NCBI GenBank assembly: GCA_016839555.1
Contig: JAEOUA010000010.1
Span: 192,001 to 256,000 of the forward strand
DNA: 64,000 nucleotides
From: Promethearchaeota archaeon
GTDB taxonomy: Archaea; Asgardarchaeota; Lokiarchaeia; Sigyniarchaeales; SOKP01
Direction: 5' to 3'
The position numbers and the translations under genes were made by a program. Below the pieces are notes generated by a model. It made no database searches. It saw nothing but the letters and a program-made list of their open reading frames with translations, and was not told the DNA's origin. Positions 12,991 through 25,049 of the stretch are shown in pieces. Positions within the stretch are counted from its first letter, which is position 1. Each line of letters starts with the position of its first letter.

Positions 12991-15900
12991 TTACTTGGTT
13001 AAAGGACCTAATTCCTTAACTTGATTAGTAAATTCTGTAATTAATTCAGCAAAACGCTTTCCTTCAGAAGCACTTACCCATTCAAGTCTAAGGCGCTTTT
13101 TGTCAATACCTAATTGCTCAATAATAATATTGTGAAGTTTTTCAAATCTTTCTTGTGCATATTCATTGCCAGAAATATAATGACAATCGCCAATATGGCA
13201 TCCACTTATAAGTACTCCATCCGCGCCGTCCTTGAATGCCTTCAAAATGAATGAGGGATCAACCCTTCCCGAACACATTACTCTTACAATCCTCATGTTT
13301 GGAGGATATTGAAACCTTGAAACGCCTGCTAAGTCAGCTCCCGCGTAAGAACACCAATTACAGCAAAAAACAAGAATTTCAGGATTGAAATATGAGTCAA
13401 TCATGGCGGAAATCTGCCCGAATTCAAACTGTCTGATCGTTATAGCACCATTTGGACAAGTCGCTGCGCATGTACCACAGCCCTTGCATAATGCGGGGTT
13501 TATGAACGATTTTTTTGTAGAAATATTGACTTCTTCAAATTCTTTAATAGAGGGGACCAGCTCTATTGCATTATATGGGCAGACGCTTTCGCATTTTCCA
13601 CAGCCAATACAATTCGTGGGATTAACTTCAGCAACTACCCCAGAGGTTTGAATTTCTTTTGCATTTAAAAAACGACTGGCTCTTCCCGCCGCACCATTTG
13701 CTTGCGAGATGGAATCTCGAATATTTTTTGGCCATTGAGCGCATCCGCATAAGAAGATTCCATCAGTTGCAAAATCTAATGGTCTTAATTTTACATGAGC
13801 TTCCAAGAAAAATCCATGCTCGTCTAAAGGTACCTTTAGCATTTTAGCTAATTCTATATTATCATATGGAACCATTGGAGTGGAAAGAACGATTAAATCA
13901 GTTTCAAATTTAAGTTTATCATGTAAATTTGTATCATATACTTCAATTTCATATTTTTCTGGTTTCTTTTTCTTTTTTTTAACTTTTGGTAAATTATCCA
14001 AATCATATCTAAGAAACATAGCATCTTTTCTGCGATTACGGTAGTATTCTTCATATTCTTTTTTGGCCATTTGAATATCTCTATAAAGTAAAACGATCTC
14101 AAGCTCTGGTTTTAGCTCTTTAAGATAATTTATGTTTTTTATGGCATTACCACAACACACATTAGAACAATAAGTAATTCCTTCTTTTTGCCGAGCATTT
14201 ACGCATAATATTGTTGTTATTCTATCGATATCATCCAGCCAAGAATAATCTTTTGATCTTAATTTCTGTTCAAGTTCTAATTGAGTTATCACATTATTAT
14301 TTCCCTGTTTATATTCAAATATCCCATGTGGCTTATGTTCTTTGGTCCCTGTCGCAACTATTATTGTGCCAATTTTTAACTCATGGATTTTATCTTTTGA
14401 ATCAATGATAGAGACATCATAATTTCCAATGTAGCCTTTTACTTCTTTTAATTGTGATCCGAGAAAAATTTCAATATTTTCATTATTTTCAATTTTTAAT
14501 TTTGTTTCATTTAAAAGATCTATCGCATCATATTCAATAGGATATAAAGAGTTTAAAAATTTCAAATTTCCTCCAAGATTCTTTTCTTTTTCAACCAGAA
14601 ATGCCTTAAATCCTTGGTTTGCAATGCTTAAAGCAGCTGTCATTCCTGAGATCCCCCCTCCAATTATTAATGCGCTAGGAGTTATTTGGATAAGTTCTTC
14701 TTTAAGGGGTTTTAATAATCTAGCTTTTGCGACTGCCATTCGTATAAGATCTTTAGCTTTTTGAGTTGCTGCCTCACGCTCATTCATATGAACCCAGCTA
14801 CACTGATCGCGAATATTAACCATCTCGAAGAGATATTTATTTAAGCCTGCTTCCTGACAAGTTTCCTGAAATAAGGCTTCATGGGTTCTTGGGGTACAAG
14901 ATGCAACAATAAAACGATTTAAATCATATTCTTGAATTACTTCCTTAATTCTCGCTTGAGAATCAGAACTGCAAGAATATAAATTATCTTCACAAAATAC
15001 CACATTAGGCAAAGTTTTTATATATTCCGCTACATTGGGGACTTCTACATATTTTCCAATATTAATCCCACAATGACAAATTAAAACTCCGATTCTTGGC
15101 TCATCTGTAATTTTTACTTCTTTTTCTTCTACTTCAATTTCTTTTTCTTTTAATTGGGTATAAGCAACGGAATTTAAAAAGGAAGCTACTTGAGATGCTA
15201 CCCCACTGGAATCAGCAACGGTTTCTGGAATATCCATTGGTCCCTCGCAAAATCCGCATAGAAAAATTCCATCTCGAGAGGATAATGATTTATTAAAATA
15301 AGACCTTTCATGAAAAAATCCATATTTATCTAATTCAATGCCTAATATTTTTCCTAATTCTCTAGTACCATGAGATGGTACTAAAGGGGTTGCTAAAACT
15401 ATTAAATTTGCCCGAAATTGTTGAAATTCTCCTGTTTTAAGATCTTCATAGTTTATTAAGATATCATTAGTTTTAGAATCTTCCTCAATAAAACTTATCT
15501 TCGTTTGAAAATATTCAACCCCATATTCTTCTTGGGCTCGTTGCGTAAATTCATAGAAATTTTTTCCATAAGCTCTAATATCATGTCGAAAGACATAACA
15601 TTTAGACTTTTCTGAATGCTCCTTAGTAATGATTGCTTCTTTTGCAGTATACATACAACAAACGCTGGAACAATAAGGTATACCTTCATGTAAATCTCGA
15701 GATCCCGCACATTGGATGAATGCTATCTTTTCTGGTTCCTTATGATCACTTGGTCTTAATACATGCCCTTCGAAGGGTCCGGAAGCGCAAAGAATTCTTT
15801 CATATTCTAATGCAGACACTACATTTTCATATTGATAACCCCATCGGTGTGATAATTCTTCTCCAAGCATATCAAATCCAGTAGCTACTACTATTGCACC

Positions 15901-16458
15901 TACTTTTATATCAAATATCTGAGGCTTCTGGTCAAAATCAATAGCTTCTGCTTTACAAACTTTACTACATACTCCACATACATCTTTAGTTAGCTTTAAA
16001 CATAATTCAGGATCTATTACATAAACTGGCGGTACTGCTTGGGGAAAAGGAATATAGATCGATTTTCGCTTTCCAAGATTCATATCAAAAAGATTAGGAA
16101 CCTCTATCTTCGGGCATTTTGCTGCGCAATCGCCACATCCCTTACATTTTGTTTCATCCACATAGCGCGGCTTTTTTAAGATTGATACTGTAAAATCTCC
16201 TGCTTTACCTTTTACTTCTTTAACTTCATGATAAGTTAAAAGCTCAATATTCTGATTACGAAAAACTTCCACCATTTTTGGCGCCAGAATACAGAGTGAG
16301 CAGTCATTTGTGGGGAATGTTTTGTCAAGTTGAGCCATTCGTCCCCCAATAGAAGGAGATTTCTCTACTAAATATACTTTAAAACCTAATTCAGTCAAAT
16401 CTAAAGAAGTTTGAATCCCAGCTATGCCACCACCTATAACCAGTACCGAGCCTTCCAT
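12991..16458 (-). CDS. hdrA: Large HdrA-like protein (two FAD modules) fused to a C-terminal MvhD domain; all-Cys paralog
   Basis: DKTFPTNDCSLC, ICHCG, VASCTP, RDQCSW; MvhD motifs FCCNWCSYAGADLAG, MCSGRVD, GCHIGDCHY. Confidence 0.92.
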   Translation of the reverse strand: MEGSVLVIGGGIAGIQTSLDLTELGFKVYLVEKSPSIGGRMAQLDKTFPTNDCSLCILAPKMVEVFRNQNIELLTYHEVKEVKGKAGDFTVSILKKPRYVDETKCKGCGDCAAKCPKIEVPNLFDMNLGKRKSIYIPFPQAVPPVYVIDPELCLKLTKDVCGVCSKVCKAEAIDFDQKPQIFDIKVGAIVVATGFDMLGEELSHRWGYQYENVVSALEYERILCASGPFEGHVLRPSDHKEPEKIAFIQCAGSRDLHEGIPYCSSVCCMYTAKEAIITKEHSEKSKCYVFRHDIRAYGKNFYEFTQRAQEEYGVEYFQTKISFIEEDSKTNDILINYEDLKTGEFQQFRANLIVLATPLVPSHGTRELGKILGIELDKYGFFHERSYFNKSLSSRDGIFLCGFCEGPMDIPETVADSSGVASQVASFLNSVAYTQLKEKEIEVEEKEVKITDEPRIGVLICHCGINIGKYVEVPNVAEYIKTLPNVVFCEDNLYSCSSDSQARIKEVIQEYDLNRFIVASCTPRTHEALFQETCQEAGLNKYLFEMVNIRDQCSWVHMNEREAATQKAKDLIRMAVAKARLLKPLKEELIQITPSALIIGGGISGMTAALSIANQGFKAFLVEKEKNLGGNLKFLNSLYPIEYDAIDLLNETKLKIENNENIEIFLGSQLKEVKGYIGNYDVSIIDSKDKIHELKIGTIIVATGTKEHKPHGIFEYKQGNNNVITQLELEQKLRSKDYSWLDDIDRITTILCVNARQKEGITYCSNVCCGNAIKNINYLKELKPELEIVLLYRDIQMAKKEYEEYYRNRRKDAMFLRYDLDNLPKVKKKKKKPEKYEIEVYDTNLHDKLKFETDLIVLSTPMVPYDNIELAKMLKVPLDEHGFFLEAHVKLRPLDFATDGIFLCGCAQWPKNIRDSISQANGAAGRASRFLNAKEIQTSGVVAEVNPTNCIGCGKCESVCPYNAIELVPSIKEFEEVNISTKKSFINPALCKGCGTCAATCPNGAITIRQFEFGQISAMIDSYFNPEILVFCCNWCSYAGADLAGVSRFQYPPNMRIVRVMCSGRVDPSFILKAFKDGADGVLISGCHIGDCHYISGNEYAQERFEKLHNIIIEQLGIDKKRLRLEWVSASEGKRFAELITEFTNQVKELGPLTK

Positions 16459-18853: not shown

Positions 18854-20362
18854 TTATTCATTTTTATTTAATTCAATAGATTTTGCTTTATTTCTTTTAC
18901 TTCCACCAATTCTTTCTACAAGGAATTGCCCAGGTTTAACTTCTGTTAGTTTTTTAAATTCTATTAACCCCGCTTTTACTGCCCCCTGAAATATTTCTTC
19001 TCCCGCCTTAGATCGTATAATAACTGCAGATGATCCACCAGGTGCTCCAATTGATCCCACAGAAATGTCTGCATATTCTGAGGTTAAATCATCACAATAG
19101 TGACAAGTATCGCGAGCATAAGACTGAACATCTTTAAGTGGAACATTTTTTTCCTCTCCGTTTTTTAGATTAATAATAAATTTCCCACTATCAATATTCA
19201 TCTTGGTTAGATTGTTAATGTCTTCATTGAACTGTTCTCTTACTAGTTTAATGATATTGTCGTAAGAAAAACTTTCCATGCAGAATAATCCTATGCGATA
19301 TGTTATATTTTTAAAGAATGGAAGGCCACTGGGAAATAATTCCCCTTTTACAAGAGCGTTCATCATACAAGGAACTCCAACAAGTGCTATCCGCTCATAA
19401 TTTTTTGCTTTTTCGAGGATATTTAATGAGGGAGCGTTCGCATATTTTGTACCCGCCGTTTTATATAAGTCTTTTACATCATCTACAATTACCGGTTCTG
19501 GTTTCCATAATTTATCTGAATGTTGTACGGCAACAATCGCATCGACAAGATTATTTTTAAGCAAATATTCGAGCAAAGAAGTAACAATCCCACCGTCCTG
19601 CCTAACCTCCTTGATTTCATCCTTAGTAGTAGTGCCAGAATAAGTTTTTAGATATGCACCTATTTTTTCCGAAAATGTCAGTGAATTATCAAGCTTTTTT
19701 ATGGTTTCATATGCTCTATTCATTGAGAAAGAGCGAGGGCAAACGGTAAAACATAGGCCGCATTTCATACATTTGTCTTCATCTAATTCAAGATGATCCG
19801 CGGTAACATTGATCGCATTCACCGGACAGATTGCCGAACAAAACCCGCAATTAACACATACCCCCACCTCATCAATTATTGACACAGGTTCAAAATAATG
19901 TTCTTTGAGATCCATCTCAGTATCTTTGGCTTTATATCGATAAAAATACTCCTTTTCCTCTACGACTTTTTCTTCCCCTTTAATTGTTTTCTTTACCTTC
20001 TTGGTTTTTACTTCAACTTGCTCTTCTACATATCCTTGTTCTTTTAAATAGATTACATCTCTTATTACATTTTCTGGTGGAATATCTTTAAATTCCTTGA
20101 CAATTTCCTCTAAAAATAATGCTTCATCGATATTTTTCATTTTTTTCAGGATATATCTGCGCTCTGTTTCAGCATCAATCATGGAATCTAAAATTTCGTA
20201 ATATTCCTGTTCTGTATATTTACTACATTCTAAAATCTCATCCTTGGCCTCAAAAAAAGCTCGAATTTGAAAATTCATTGATGCTTCAAAGGTAGCGTCT
20301 AATAGATCTTTCGGGGATATTTTTTCGAATACCTTTTTATCCACTTGTTGTAGCATTACCAT
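18854..20362 (-). CDS. FrhB/FpoF family protein with ferredoxin and an extra ~160-aa N-terminal domain
   Basis: CVNCGFCSAICP, CMKCGLC, QDGGIVT, VGVPC, GLFCME, CHYCDD, ADISVG. Confidence 0.88.
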   Translation of the reverse strand: MVMLQQVDKKVFEKISPKDLLDATFEASMNFQIRAFFEAKDEILECSKYTEQEYYEILDSMIDAETERRYILKKMKNIDEALFLEEIVKEFKDIPPENVIRDVIYLKEQGYVEEQVEVKTKKVKKTIKGEEKVVEEKEYFYRYKAKDTEMDLKEHYFEPVSIIDEVGVCVNCGFCSAICPVNAINVTADHLELDEDKCMKCGLCFTVCPRSFSMNRAYETIKKLDNSLTFSEKIGAYLKTYSGTTTKDEIKEVRQDGGIVTSLLEYLLKNNLVDAIVAVQHSDKLWKPEPVIVDDVKDLYKTAGTKYANAPSLNILEKAKNYERIALVGVPCMMNALVKGELFPSGLPFFKNITYRIGLFCMESFSYDNIIKLVREQFNEDINNLTKMNIDSGKFIINLKNGEEKNVPLKDVQSYARDTCHYCDDLTSEYADISVGSIGAPGGSSAVIIRSKAGEEIFQGAVKAGLIEFKKLTEVKPGQFLVERIGGSKRNKAKSIELNKNE

Positions 20363-20429
20363 TTTTACTTCTTTTTTCCTTTTTTAACTATTTCATTCAA
20401 CACATTTTTAAAATTATAATTATTTTTTA

Positions 20430-20503
20430 CATCCTCCCACCACGCTAAGGTTAGTCCTTTTGTACCTACAATTTTTATACAAAACTCATTCTTTTAGAGG
20501 ATG
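20430..20503 (-). promoter_or_regulatory. Eukaryote-like SECIS element
   Basis: CAUCCUCU/GGGAGGAUG lower helix; AUGA (20489-20486) opposite GA (20456-20455); UUUUGUAU/GUACAAAA upper helix; AAAAA opening the apical loop; starts 1 nt after the vhuD stop. Confidence 0.85.
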
Positions 20504-20504
20504 G

Positions 20505-20933
20505 TTAGTTTTTTAGTCTTGCTTGATTTTCAATTTTTATAGGATTGGGTCCTAATCTCTGAATCTTCTCATGGGCGTCCTTAACACTCTTTACCAATTT
20601 ATCACCTTCAGCGGACGAGCAATAATACATATTGACTCTTTTTCCGAAACCTCTTTTTTCCAAAATTCTGTTCGCGAAATCGACATGCTCTTGTGCTACA
20701 TAATTGCCCTTGCCAAAAGCACATTCTTTTAGTCTTCATCCCACCACCATTACTCCATCAGCACCCGATTTTATCGCATATAAGATATGTTTCACATCAA
20801 CTCTGCCTGTACATCTCACTTTAATTATTCTCACAGAGGGAGTATATTTAAGCCTAGAAGTACCGGCTAAATCAGCTGCGCCGTAACCTCACTTTGTGCA
20901 AGCGAACAATATTATTTGCATATTATCATTCAA
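20505..20933 (-). CDS. vhuD: VhuD/MvhD selenoprotein, 142 aa, two Sec; absent from the ORF track
   Basis: FACTK-TGA-GYGAADLAG, VRCTGRVD, VVG-TGA-RLKEC; TGAs at 20889-20891 and 20736-20738; GGTGA SD before the TTG start (alternative ATG at 20921). Confidence 0.93.
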
Positions 20934-20938
20934 TTTTT

Positions 20939-22897
20939 TTAATCACCTGCTAGTAATCCTTTAATTTCAGCATATAATTGATAATCTCGGGAATAGCGTA
21001 TATCTATTGCTTGGGTTGGGCAACAAGTCGCACAAATCCCACATCCATCGCAATTAATTTCGTCCACCACTGCTACTTCATTATCAGAAACTGTGATCGC
21101 ACCTTTCGGACATTCTTTCTCACATCGTTTACATGAGATGCAGAGATCTTCTGTCACTTCCGCAACAATCAATTCGAGATCAATTTCGCCCGCAGATGTT
21201 AGTTCAGCAACTTTACTTGCCGCTGCCCTTGCTTGAGAAACAGAATAACCAATATTTTTAGGTCCTTGTGCAAAGCCTGCGATAAAAATTCCTTTTGTCC
21301 TTGTTTCTTGTGGCATAAGACCAAAGTGAGCTTCCGTTAAAAATCCATATTTATCCACATCTAAATTTAAGACTTTAGCAATTTGTTCTGTACCTTGAGA
21401 TGGCAATACCGCAGTTGACAATACCACTAAATCCGCATCAATATTTATAATTTCATCCGTAAGGGAAGAATATACCCTAATCTTAACGTTTTTAGTTTCA
21501 GGATCTTCTCTTATTTCTCCTACTTTCCCTCGTATTAATCGTATACCTTTTTCTCTTGATCTTTGATAGTATTCTTCAAATCCCTTTTCATTTGTTCTCA
21601 TATCAATATAACATATCGATATATTCGCGTCAGGAAATTCTTCTTTTAATAATCGTGCATTTTTTAATGCTAACATGCAACATATGCCACTACAATAGGT
21701 TCTTTCAGCAGTTCTGCTCCCGACACATTGAATGAAAACAATTTCTTTTGGTTCTTTCTCATCCGATACTCTATGCATATACCCTTCAAGCGGTCCATTC
21801 GGAGCAAGCATTCTCTCAAGTTGAGCTTGATTAATCACGTTTTCAAATGTTCCATAACCATATTCATCTTCTGGTTCATAAATATCCCAACCAGTCGCAA
21901 TGATGATTGTTCCCACTTTAAAATGTACCTCTTCAGGTTTCTGAGAGAAATCTATTGCATCTAATTCGCATTCATTTACGCATGAAAAGCATTCTACACA
22001 GCAATCTCGTTTAATATCATATAAAAACGGTACTGCTTGACCAAATGCGATATCTATTGCTTTTCTAACCCCTAAATGCTCATCAAAGAAATTACTACAA
22101 TAGATAGGACATACCTCGGCGCATGCCCCACAGCCATTGCAATCATCTGTAATGAATCGCGGTTTTTTCTCAACTGTAACTTCATAATTTCCGACATAAC
22201 CTTCGACCTCCTTTACATAACTATAGCTTAGAATTTCAATGTTTTTATGTCGGTTAACTTCCAGCATTTTAGGGCCACAGATTCAGATGGAGCAATCGTC
22301 TGTTGGAAACGTTCTATCTAGCTGAGCCATGCGACCTCCTATGGTTGTTTTTTCTTCGACTAAATACACTTTTATTCCTTGGTTGGCAAGATCAAGAGCG
22401 GCATTCATGCCTGCAATACCCCCGCCTACTATGAGACAAGCCTTCTCAACAGGCACCGTTCTTATGGGGACGGTTTCAAGTCTTCTTAATCGTTCCATGC
22501 CTCCCTTTACAAGAATTTTTGCTTTTTCAGTTGCATCCTCCTTATCCTCTGTACACCAGCTACACTGCTCCCGAACATTTACCATCTGAAAAAAATAGGG
22601 ACTTAAGCCCGCTTTTTCAATAGTTTCTCTATAAATTGGTTCATGGGTAAGAGGTGTTCAAGCTGATGCGATTATACGATTTAATTTCTTTTCTTTGATA
22701 TCTTTAAGGATTTCTCCTTGGCCCGCTTCTGTACAGAGAAAGGGAGATATTTTTGATACCACCACATTGTCCAAAGTTTTGGCAAATTCTGTTAATTTTT
22801 GGCAATCTACTTTACTTTTTATATTTATACCTCACTGACAAGCGTAATAACCTATACGTTGCTCTGTATCCAATCCGTTGTTTTGATTATTATTCAT
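20939..22897 (-). CDS. hdrA: Heterodisulfide reductase subunit A selenoprotein, 652 aa, three Sec (U22, U80, U205)
   Basis: One frame from ATG 22897 (AGGTGA upstream): ACQ-U-GINI, ASA-U-TPLTHE, DDCSI-U-ICGPKM; TGAs at 22832-22834, 22658-22660, 22283-22285; joins two ORF-track fragments. Confidence 0.93.
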
Positions 22898-23309
22898 ACT
22901 TCTTTCTATATCACCTAATCAGAATTATTTTAATTCTTAATAATTATTTTTATTAAAGTTTTTTTATTAGTTTAACTTTACATTTTTCAATAGAACTTAA
23001 CACAAATAAAGAAATTTAATCTAAAAAAGTTTAGATTTATATTAATATTCACTTCATTTATATTTGAAAAGAAAAAATTTTAAAAAAAAATTATTTCTCT
23101 CTAAAAATATTCCAAATTGACGTTAAATTTTGAATCTTGTTTTCATATAATTGTCGAATTTGTTCTAAAAATATGAATAACTCTTATCAGCCAAGGTTTA
23201 TTTAAATTTAAAAGATGGAAATATAAAATAATAAAAAAAGTTAAATTTGAAATTGTAATTGTAAAAGATAATTAGAAAGTTAAATAACAAAAAAAAAAAA
23301 AAGAAAATT

Positions 23310-25049
23310 ATGACACTTCTATTAAATCCAAAGCAACATATACGGTATTATCCCGATGCGAGATCAAAAGAGATTATGCTCAAAACTATAGAATTTTTCG
23401 AAAATAAAGGGAAAAGAAAACTTAAGGAAGATGATCACAATCATGTGTGGTATGGTGATTTTCTCGAATTCCAAAAAGAAAATATGCTTTTTGCTCATCT
23501 GTTAACTCCTTCTCAATATGGAGAGAATGAAGATTATCGATGGGATACTTGGAGAATTTGCGAATTTAATGAAATACTTGCATTTTATGGTTTAAATTAT
23601 TGGTATACGTGGCAAGTGACAATATTAGGGCTAGGTCCTATTTGGATGAGTAAAAATGAGAAAGCGAAGCAAAAAGCAGCAAAATTATTGCGAGAGGGGG
23701 CAATATTTGCCTTTGGATTATCCGAACAAGCTCATGGGGCAGATATTTACGCTACTGAAATGGCTTTAACTCCTCAAGAAGATGGAACATATAGAGCAAA
23801 TGGAGAAAAATATTATATTGGAAACGGAAATGAAGCAGAAATGGTTTCAAATTTCGGCAAATTTGCTGATAAGGAAGGAAATATCCCTCCATATGACATG
23901 AAAAATAAGGACCAATATATTTTCTTTGTAGCAAATTATAGAAATAAAAACTATGAACTAATAAAAAATATTTGCGAAAGTCAAAATTATGTAGCAAATT
24001 TTGCACTTCATGACTATCCAATTACTGAAGAAGATATTCTTTCCAAGGGAGAAGAAGCTTGGAATGCATCTCTTAATACCGTAAATGTGGGAAAATATAA
24101 TTTAGGATGGGCTTCAATAGGTATTTGTACCCATACATTTTATGAAGCGATTCATCATGCCGCTCATCGACGGCTCTATAATATGTATGTGACCGATTTT
24201 CAACATGTAAAACAGAATTTTGTCGATGCTTATACCCGTTTAATAGCGATGAAATTATTTGGATTGAGAACGGCAGATTATATGAGAATAGCTTCTAATG
24301 AGGATCGCCGATATTTACTCTATGCACCGGTTATGAAAATGAAAACGACCACTCAAGGAGAGGAAGTTATTAATTTGATGTGGGATGTGATCGCTGCGAA
24401 AGGTTTTGAAAAAGATATGTATTTTGAAGGGGCAGCAAGGGATATTCGTGCGTTACCTAAACTTGAAGGTACAGTTCACGTAAATATTGCGTTAATTTTG
24501 AAATTTATGTTAAATTTCTTTATGAATCATAAGAAATATGAAGAGATCCCTCGACAAGATCAAATTAAAGATGATACTTATTTGTTCAATCAGGGACCCA
24601 CTCGTGGGTTGGGAGCAATTCGTCTTCATGATTGGAAGCCAGCGTTTGAGCAATATAACCTACCCAATGTTAAAATATTTTTAGAACAAATTAAGATGTT
24701 TAATCTTATGGGAGTTAAAGCTACCCCAAGTGCTAAACAACAAAAAGATTTGGATTTTATGCTTTCAGGAATCGGAGAGATTTTTTCTCTTATCGTATAT
24801 GCTCATTTAATCATTGAAAATGCGAAAATCTACGAAATTGATAATGATACATTAGACCAAATATTTGATTTTTTAGTAAGAGATTTTTCTAAATATGCAT
24901 TGAATCTGTATCATAAAACTAGTACTACTCCTGAGCAGATGGAATGGTGTTTGAAGATGATTAAGAAACCCAATGTCGATCCAGAAAGATTTAATAAAGT
25001 ATGGGAAATTGTTCACTCTCTCAAGGATGCATATGAAATGAATCCATAA
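23310..25049 (+). CDS. Acyl-CoA dehydrogenase family protein
   Basis: AFGLSEQAHGAD, NGEKYYIGN, HRRLY, LEGT. Confidence 0.9.
   Translation: MTLLLNPKQHIRYYPDARSKEIMLKTIEFFENKGKRKLKEDDHNHVWYGDFLEFQKENMLFAHLLTPSQYGENEDYRWDTWRICEFNEILAFYGLNYWYTWQVTILGLGPIWMSKNEKAKQKAAKLLREGAIFAFGLSEQAHGADIYATEMALTPQEDGTYRANGEKYYIGNGNEAEMVSNFGKFADKEGNIPPYDMKNKDQYIFFVANYRNKNYELIKNICESQNYVANFALHDYPITEEDILSKGEEAWNASLNTVNVGKYNLGWASIGICTHTFYEAIHHAAHRRLYNMYVTDFQHVKQNFVDAYTRLIAMKLFGLRTADYMRIASNEDRRYLLYAPVMKMKTTTQGEEVINLMWDVIAAKGFEKDMYFEGAARDIRALPKLEGTVHVNIALILKFMLNFFMNHKKYEEIPRQDQIKDDTYLFNQGPTRGLGAIRLHDWKPAFEQYNLPNVKIFLEQIKMFNLMGVKATPSAKQQKDLDFMLSGIGEIFSLIVYAHLIIENAKIYEIDNDTLDQIFDFLVRDFSKYALNLYHKTSTTPEQMEWCLKMIKKPNVDPERFNKVWEIVHSLKDAYEMNP

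Follow-up and report, generated by a model that had tools for sequence, protein, structure and literature searches.

The hdrA–vhuD locus and its in-frame UGA codons

The window examined here, a stretch of 64,000 nucleotides from a Promethearchaeota archaeon contig, carries on its minus strand a cluster of seven co-directional genes that includes hdrA and vhuD. The hdrA gene (20939–22897, minus strand; 652 codons, UAA stop) is an open frame when TGA is read as selenocysteine (Sec), with in-frame UGAs at codon 22 (U22, 22832–22834), codon 80 (U80, 22658–22660) and codon 205 (U205, 22283–22285), and it matches the solved HdrA chain 9sfi_A with a score of 680 bits. The vhuD gene (also mvhD, FlpD family; 20505–20933, minus strand; 142 codons, TTG start, UAA stop) matches PF02662 with 146.7 bits and has in-frame UGAs at codons 15 (U15, 20889–20891) and 66 (U66, 20736–20738). 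When aligned to the solved chains, U205 of HdrA lies opposite an X (Sec) of 9sfi_A and U22 and U80 lie opposite Cys, while U15 and U66 of VhuD both fall opposite X (Sec) positions of the solved subunit delta, 9sfi_K. The UGA columns of HdrA and VhuD are invariantly Cys or Sec among the four paralogous pairs in the genome, and U15 and U66 both correspond to Cys in the all-Cys MvhD domain of a neighbouring fusion protein. On these alignments, all five UGAs of the two genes occupy Cys/Sec positions of solved homologues.

The neighbouring HdrA-like/MvhD fusion protein (12991–16458, minus strand; 1155 aa, with a C-terminal FlpD domain) is encoded in the same co-directional cluster, separated from the Sec-type hdrA–vhuD pair by two frhB-like genes and a gene for a CCG-domain (HdrB-like) protein. 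Hence, Sec and Cys forms are found side by side in one cluster.

Standard gene calling splits both hdrA and vhuD, and this is the single point in favour of reading the UGAs as true stops, left by a broken gene or an assembly error. Under that reading, or if UGA were reassigned across the genome, no selenocysteine insertion (SECIS) element would be needed. Both versions appear extremely improbable, as the five UGAs are aligned with Cys or Sec of solved homologues and are kept in paralogues and orthologues, and TGA ends 13 % of the genome's long ORFs. The sequence-only reading, which proposed a shared SECIS at this locus, had also pointed out that all seven cluster genes end in TAA. The count is correct for all seven, but it was given little weight because TAA ends 74 % of the long ORFs in the genome.

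The gap between the hdrA stop and the vhuD start is 5 nt, as previously stated, provided that vhuD begins at the TTG, which is aligned with the Met of the paralogues; the next ATG lies 17 nt from the hdrA stop. Beyond vhuD and the hairpin that follows it (20430–20503, minus strand) are an A/U-rich spacer of 67 nt (20363–20429) and the next co-directional gene, an frhB-like gene of 502 aa (18854–20362, minus strand). The order vhuD, SECIS, frhB-like gene is conserved, with orthologues of the frhB-like gene following the vhuD SECIS in related genomes.

The hairpin behind vhuD and its relatives

From the folds and a covariance model (CM), the whole element (20430–20503, minus strand; 74 nt) is predicted to be a three-way junction of a lower helix (P1), a kink-turn arm with an upper helix (P2), and a side hairpin (P3). 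In the minimum free energy (MFE) folds, the 5′ strand of P1, CAUCCUCU (20496–20503), begins 1 nt past the vhuD stop and forms 8 bp with the 3′ strand, GGAGGAUG (20430–20437). The 5′ side of the kink-turn (20486–20492) consists of AG (20492–20491), a bulge A-A-U (20490–20488), and G20487 and A20486, with the AUGA motif at 20489–20486; on the 3′ side (20453–20457), an unpaired G20457 that faces G20485 is followed by GA (G20456–A20455) and by C20454–U20453, which belong to a short stem. The AG is predicted to pair with this CU, and G20487 and A20486 to form tandem G.A pairs. Such a succession of a stem, a 3-nt bulge A-A-U and then G.A/A.G is, as far as sequence can tell, the pattern of a standard kink-turn, and each of its components (AG/CU stem, AAU bulge, GA/GA) is present in the element.

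P2 and its apical loop span 20458–20484, with 8 Watson-Crick or GU pairs between the strands UUUUGUAU and GUACAAAA (20484–20477 with 20465–20458) and an 11-nt loop, AAAAAUUGUAG (20476–20466), that starts with AAAAA and ends with AG. A G.G position adjoins the core in the upper helix of the window copy, and this first stem position is unpaired in 5/8 of the in-genome copies. P3 (20439–20451), ACC-UUAGCGU-GGU, has 3 bp, formed by the ACC and GGU halves, and a 7-nt loop, and is weak in the window copy. The fold reproduces everything that had been seen by eye, namely a hairpin directly after the vhuD stop with a lower helix, an AUGA/GA core, an 8-bp upper helix and an unpaired AAAAA. An "extra segment", CUAACCUUAG, had been placed in the 3′ internal loop; the segment is real, but it is not loop filler. 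Its CU pairs with the AG at the base of the kink-turn, and the remainder consists of a single A without a partner, the ACC that is the 5′ half of P3, and part of the P3 loop; the segment belongs to a conserved third arm.

A CM built from seven other in-genome copies, with the window copy excluded, finds 20452–20495 (minus strand) with 43.2 bits (E 5.6e-7 in 64 kb), and the next-best match in the 64-kb window scores 19.5 bits; with the window copy included in the model the score is 51.5 bits. Against shuffled sequences, the energy of the complete hairpin fold is not significant (z −1.1 to −1.2), and z is −2.7 when the core is fixed and only the flanks are shuffled. All eight upper-helix pairs form in every one of the 8 in-genome copies (100 %), both sides of each pair varying between copies, and 98.3 % of P2 cells are paired in 36 orthologues. 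No SECIS family was obtained from Rfam, either on the window at the gathering score or around the locus at E up to 10. The only Rfam hits were at chance level and were rejected: a miRNA, a snoRNA and a RybB-like match that scored 25.6 bits where the cut-off is 40.

Eukaryote-like SECIS elements had been said to occur in Lokiarchaeota, and the literature agrees (PMC4989117, PMC11227280). The lokiSECIS of Mariotti et al. 2016 (PMC4989117) is described as having AUGA, a 9-bp stem, an 11-nt loop with five leading adenines and a final G that usually has an A before it, then GA or in some cases AA, and as lying near the end of the coding sequence. The window element has every one of these features, with AUGA directly before the main stem, a stem of 9 positions (8 paired plus the G.G), an 11-nt loop with an A-rich start and AG at its end, and GA directly after the stem. 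As published, there is a single copy per hdrA–vhuD pair, located after vhuD, HdrA has multiple Sec and hdrA never ends in UGA. Nothing essential differs from the lokiSECIS, or the type I eSECIS-like elements of Asgard archaea as named by Huang et al. 2024 (PMC11227280), the G.G at the first stem position being the only peculiarity recorded. With eukaryotic SECIS elements (AUGA/GA kink-turn, AAR motif, SBP2-dependent) it shares the AUGA...GA core, the unpaired apical adenines and, presumably, action over kilobases from the 3′ side, whereas its upper helix is shorter, it has an extra third arm, it would be carried on a prokaryotic polycistronic RNA, and it has no Rfam hit. The GAA_A SECIS of Methanococcales and Methanopyrus is alike in lying 3′ of vhuD, where two UGAs separated by about 50 codons depend on a single element, and their vhuD SECIS, which has AUGA and an extra stem, has the AUGA in common with the window element (PMC4989117); however, the window element lacks the GAA_A bulge and the G-C-rich upper helix. 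A SECIS element separate from that of vhuD is reported for hdrA in these methanogens (PMC4989117). Judged by its primary sequence and predicted fold, the window hairpin is a genuine Lokiarchaeota-type SECIS.

The genome (3.74 Mb, 12 contigs) contains nine type I elements, eight of which follow a gene with an in-frame UGA, as read here. The nine are associated with four hdrA–vhuD pairs, two vhuU-like mini-genes, a UxxU AhpC/TSA-family peroxiredoxin-like gene, a 120-codon UU ORF and a small gene on contig C2, where the only ORF called beside the element is an 80-aa frame without a UGA. The three further paralogous hdrA–vhuD pairs have the same layout as the pair in the window, and the geometry of a 9-position stem and an 11-nt loop recurs in the 8 further in-genome copies and in 35 orthologues. 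One of the elements (G000:C9:63074-63273; L138:1346-1545, plus strand; 38.3 bits) has one extra stem position and shares sequence with the end of a 54-codon vhuU-like mini-gene (motif DCUxxCxxH), located after a 437-aa NiFe-hydrogenase large-subunit gene; the mini-gene terminates at the UGA contained in the AUGA core. The 120-codon ORF (L011:3637-3999, plus strand; G000:C7:6178-6540) has two adjacent UGAs (codons 83–84), ends 1 nt before a canonical lokiSECIS and has no Pfam match.

Genes for selenocysteine synthesis and insertion were also located. A SepSecS gene (388 bits) lies beside a tRNA-Sec-like gene in G000:C5:400755-408710, and a SelB-like GTPase factor is encoded approximately 6 kb from them. 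The tRNA-Sec-like gene (88 nt, anticodon UCA) scores 45.3 bits, 1.7 bits under the Rfam cut-off of 47, and was not called by ARAGORN. A selD gene has one in-frame TGA. The Pfam model eEFSec_4th matched none of the control genomes and hence is uninformative. On this gene content, the genome carries the selenocysteine machinery.

Candidate signals for the five UGA codons

The reading we prefer, to which we assign a probability of about 0.85, is that a Loki-type (eukaryote-like, type I) SECIS at the 3′ end of a bicistronic hdrA–vhuD message serves all five UGAs. The kink-turn core (AUGA/GA) and the A-rich apical loop would recruit a Sec-specific elongation factor with Sec-tRNASec, the SelB-like factor being bound either directly or through an adaptor, and the factor would be delivered in cis to ribosomes paused at the upstream UGAs of the same RNA. 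The AUGA lies 15 nt from the UAA end of vhuD, 249 and 402 nt from the two vhuD UGAs, and 1796, 2171 and 2345 nt from the three in hdrA; the reach would therefore have to extend to 1.8–2.3 kb and across the 5-nt cistron boundary. The distance of about 2.3 kb given earlier is borne out by the farthest hdrA UGA, and all predictions of the sequence-only reading that can be addressed at the sequence level, one such SECIS for five UGAs in two cistrons, hold. From this arrangement we infer a common transcript for hdrA and vhuD, and an action of the element on hdrA codons.

The same interpretation was published in 2016, and the window is a correct rediscovery of it. Mariotti et al. 2016 (PMC4989117) found that HdrA and VhuD of Loki are always in tandem with a very short gap, that there is only one lokiSECIS, downstream of VhuD, and that the pair is most likely on one polycistronic mRNA, and they concluded that as many as six UGAs, spread over about 2 kb, can be served by a single lokiSECIS. 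Huang et al. 2024 (PMC11227280) gave the shared-signal reading again, for Asgard genomes in general.

Conservation of the arrangement was assessed in related genomes. Every genome of the same family has a CM match (126/126), compared to 2/25 elsewhere in the class. Orthologues of the frhB-like gene downstream led to 40 loci in related genomes, of which 36 have a single element right after vhuD, 50–160 nt before the frhB-like gene, and the hairpin is thus kept there as well as in the three paralogous pairs. At these loci hdrA has 3–5 UGAs and vhuD 2, giving up to 7 per pair, and the farthest UGA is 2.3–2.45 kb from the core. The hdrA stop is UAA or UAG in 30/30 and never UGA (0/30), and in 13/29 vhuD stops at the UGA within the AUGA core, which matches the minimal-distance idea of Mariotti et al. 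2016 (PMC4989117). A further search for loci via an alignment of VhuD used a back-translated pattern that required Cys codons and returned mostly Cys-type MvhD loci of bacteria and methanogens, with one useful close relative (L016; SECIS match of 48.7 bits).

Two loci (L130 and L131) with a 54 %-identical frhB-like gene have a Cys-type vhuD without UGA and no SECIS match, which fits a link between the element and Sec codons. In another genus (L132:330-400, minus strand, and L133), a variant SECIS with AUGA...AA in place of AUGA...GA was found. Its stem is shorter, its apical part contains a mini-stem and its linker is longer; it retains both the side hairpin (UCCCUGCAAGGGA) and the lower helix.

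If the element served vhuD only, the three hdrA UGAs would depend on another signal, either within hdrA itself or in the leader 5′ of it. No such signal was found: with CM filters off, nothing else in the whole window exceeds 19.5 bits and neither hdrA nor the 412 nt upstream has a match at E up to 10; an approximate GAA_A-type pattern of our own gave 0 hits in 20300–23400 and 0 in the whole window; and no stable fold better than shuffles (z −0.33 to +0.53) is present in the 70 nt after each UGA. These results hold for the signal types that can be modelled today, the known SECIS types, and this leaves some room for a separate hdrA signal. Within that scope, the hairpin after vhuD is the only recognisable signal for the five UGAs, in line with the earlier expectation that no second SECIS would be found in or upstream of hdrA.

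An AUGA...GA SECIS-like match does occur inside hdrA of some orthologues (L116:2046, L121:2100, L107:2147 and L120:2105, in oriented coordinates), about 1.15 kb upstream of the start of the frhB-like gene, and counts in favour of a separate signal. It was rejected as a candidate since it shows no conservation, neither the window nor most orthologues having it. As it falls within a conserved protein-coding stretch, it probably just reflects the encoded protein. The lack of structure after the UGAs, and the recurrence of the single-SECIS layout with a gap of a few nucleotides in all four paralogous pairs and 36 related loci, also make a separate hdrA signal unlikely, and favour the shared element.

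A further possibility is that the hairpin is mainly a 3′-end or stability element, or a generic site for a kink-turn-binding protein, rather than a recoding signal. Kink-turns bind L7Ae-type proteins, and a run of 5 U directly follows P1 in 13 orthologues. The window copy is without such a U run, however, eight of the nine in-genome copies are behind genes with in-frame UGAs at Cys positions, and the Cys-type vhuD loci L130 and L131 lack the element. This explanation was hence considered very unlikely in comparison with a recoding role.

The runs of U have also been considered as marks of the end of a transcript. A run of at least 5 U is present in the spacer of 23/36 orthologues, approximately the chance level for A/U-rich DNA; the 67-nt spacer in the window has none, and a promoter or terminator reading of it was rejected on both counts. 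Where five U follow the lower helix directly (13/36 loci, e.g. L098, L101 and L116), they could represent a transcript end or an extension of the helix. The description of the hairpin as lying "inside an operon" comes from gene order, and co-transcription with the frhB-like gene, which starts 67 nt past P1, is no more than a possibility. The SECIS reading is the same for a message that stops at the element and for one that runs on into that gene.

A predicted third arm and kink-turn stem

The two-stem hairpin with an internal loop modelled in the main texts of PMC4989117 and PMC11227280, which do not describe a short kink-turn stem or a third hairpin, may not be the complete structure. A small hairpin is located between GA and the 3′ strand of the lower helix in all eight folded in-genome copies. 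As the MAFFT alignment of full elements mis-registered the lower helix, and RNAalifold recovered P2 and P3 only, constrained folds of P1 and P3 were compared with those obtained from shuffled flanks. When P2 is the sole fixed helix, the MFE fold is a three-way junction in 39/43 elements compared to 23 % of shuffled flanks, and under tight geometry limits in 32/43 elements compared to 1.9 % of 1720 shuffles. The 43 elements include 35 distinct P3 and 24 distinct P1 sequences, and P1 pairing is kept despite the differences.

The kink-turn stem pairs covary across the 36 orthologues. The pair next to the bulge and GA is G-C in 35/36 and A-U in one, and the second, for which five pair types occur, is maintained in 29/36. 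In the alignment of the 36 orthologue sequences, 93.5 % of P3 pairs are kept; P3 is 3–7 bp in relatives, often with a GCA/GCG loop, the window copy (3 bp) being the weakest form.

Hence, it is conceivable that the Loki-type SECIS is a three-way junction built on a standard kink-turn and not the published two-stem hairpin, a proposal that we make tentatively and to which we give somewhat less than even odds. The parts would be a lower helix, a 2–3 bp stem that continues through a bulge of 3 nt and G.A pairs to the upper helix, and a third hairpin 2–4 nt after GA. A likeness to the k-junction, a kink-turn-based three-way junction (Wang et al. 2014, cited in PMC11227280), is offered as a lead only: presumably shared are the kink-turn and a third helix leaving the side of the non-bulged strand, and the window element differs in having a predicted canonical stem of 2–3 bp between the kink-turn and the junction.

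One 3′ signal serving up to seven UGAs in two cistrons over 2.3–2.45 kb would be the longest-range multi-gene Sec arrangement known and would link archaeal and eukaryotic recoding, a case that was made in 2016 and to which the window adds one more clean instance. The well-assembled genome, with four hdrA–vhuD pairs and nine type I elements, could be used to design transcript mapping, proteomics and RNA probing. The conserved third arm and the kink-turn stem, which are ignored by current search models, are the only part that may add to knowledge. No SBP2 homologue is known in archaea (PMC4989117, PMC11881835), and a Loki SECIS was reported to be non-functional in Methanococcus maripaludis (PMC11881835). 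If function requires the third arm and the junction, perhaps because an archaeal SECIS-binding factor docks there, this could help to explain that failure in Methanococcus.
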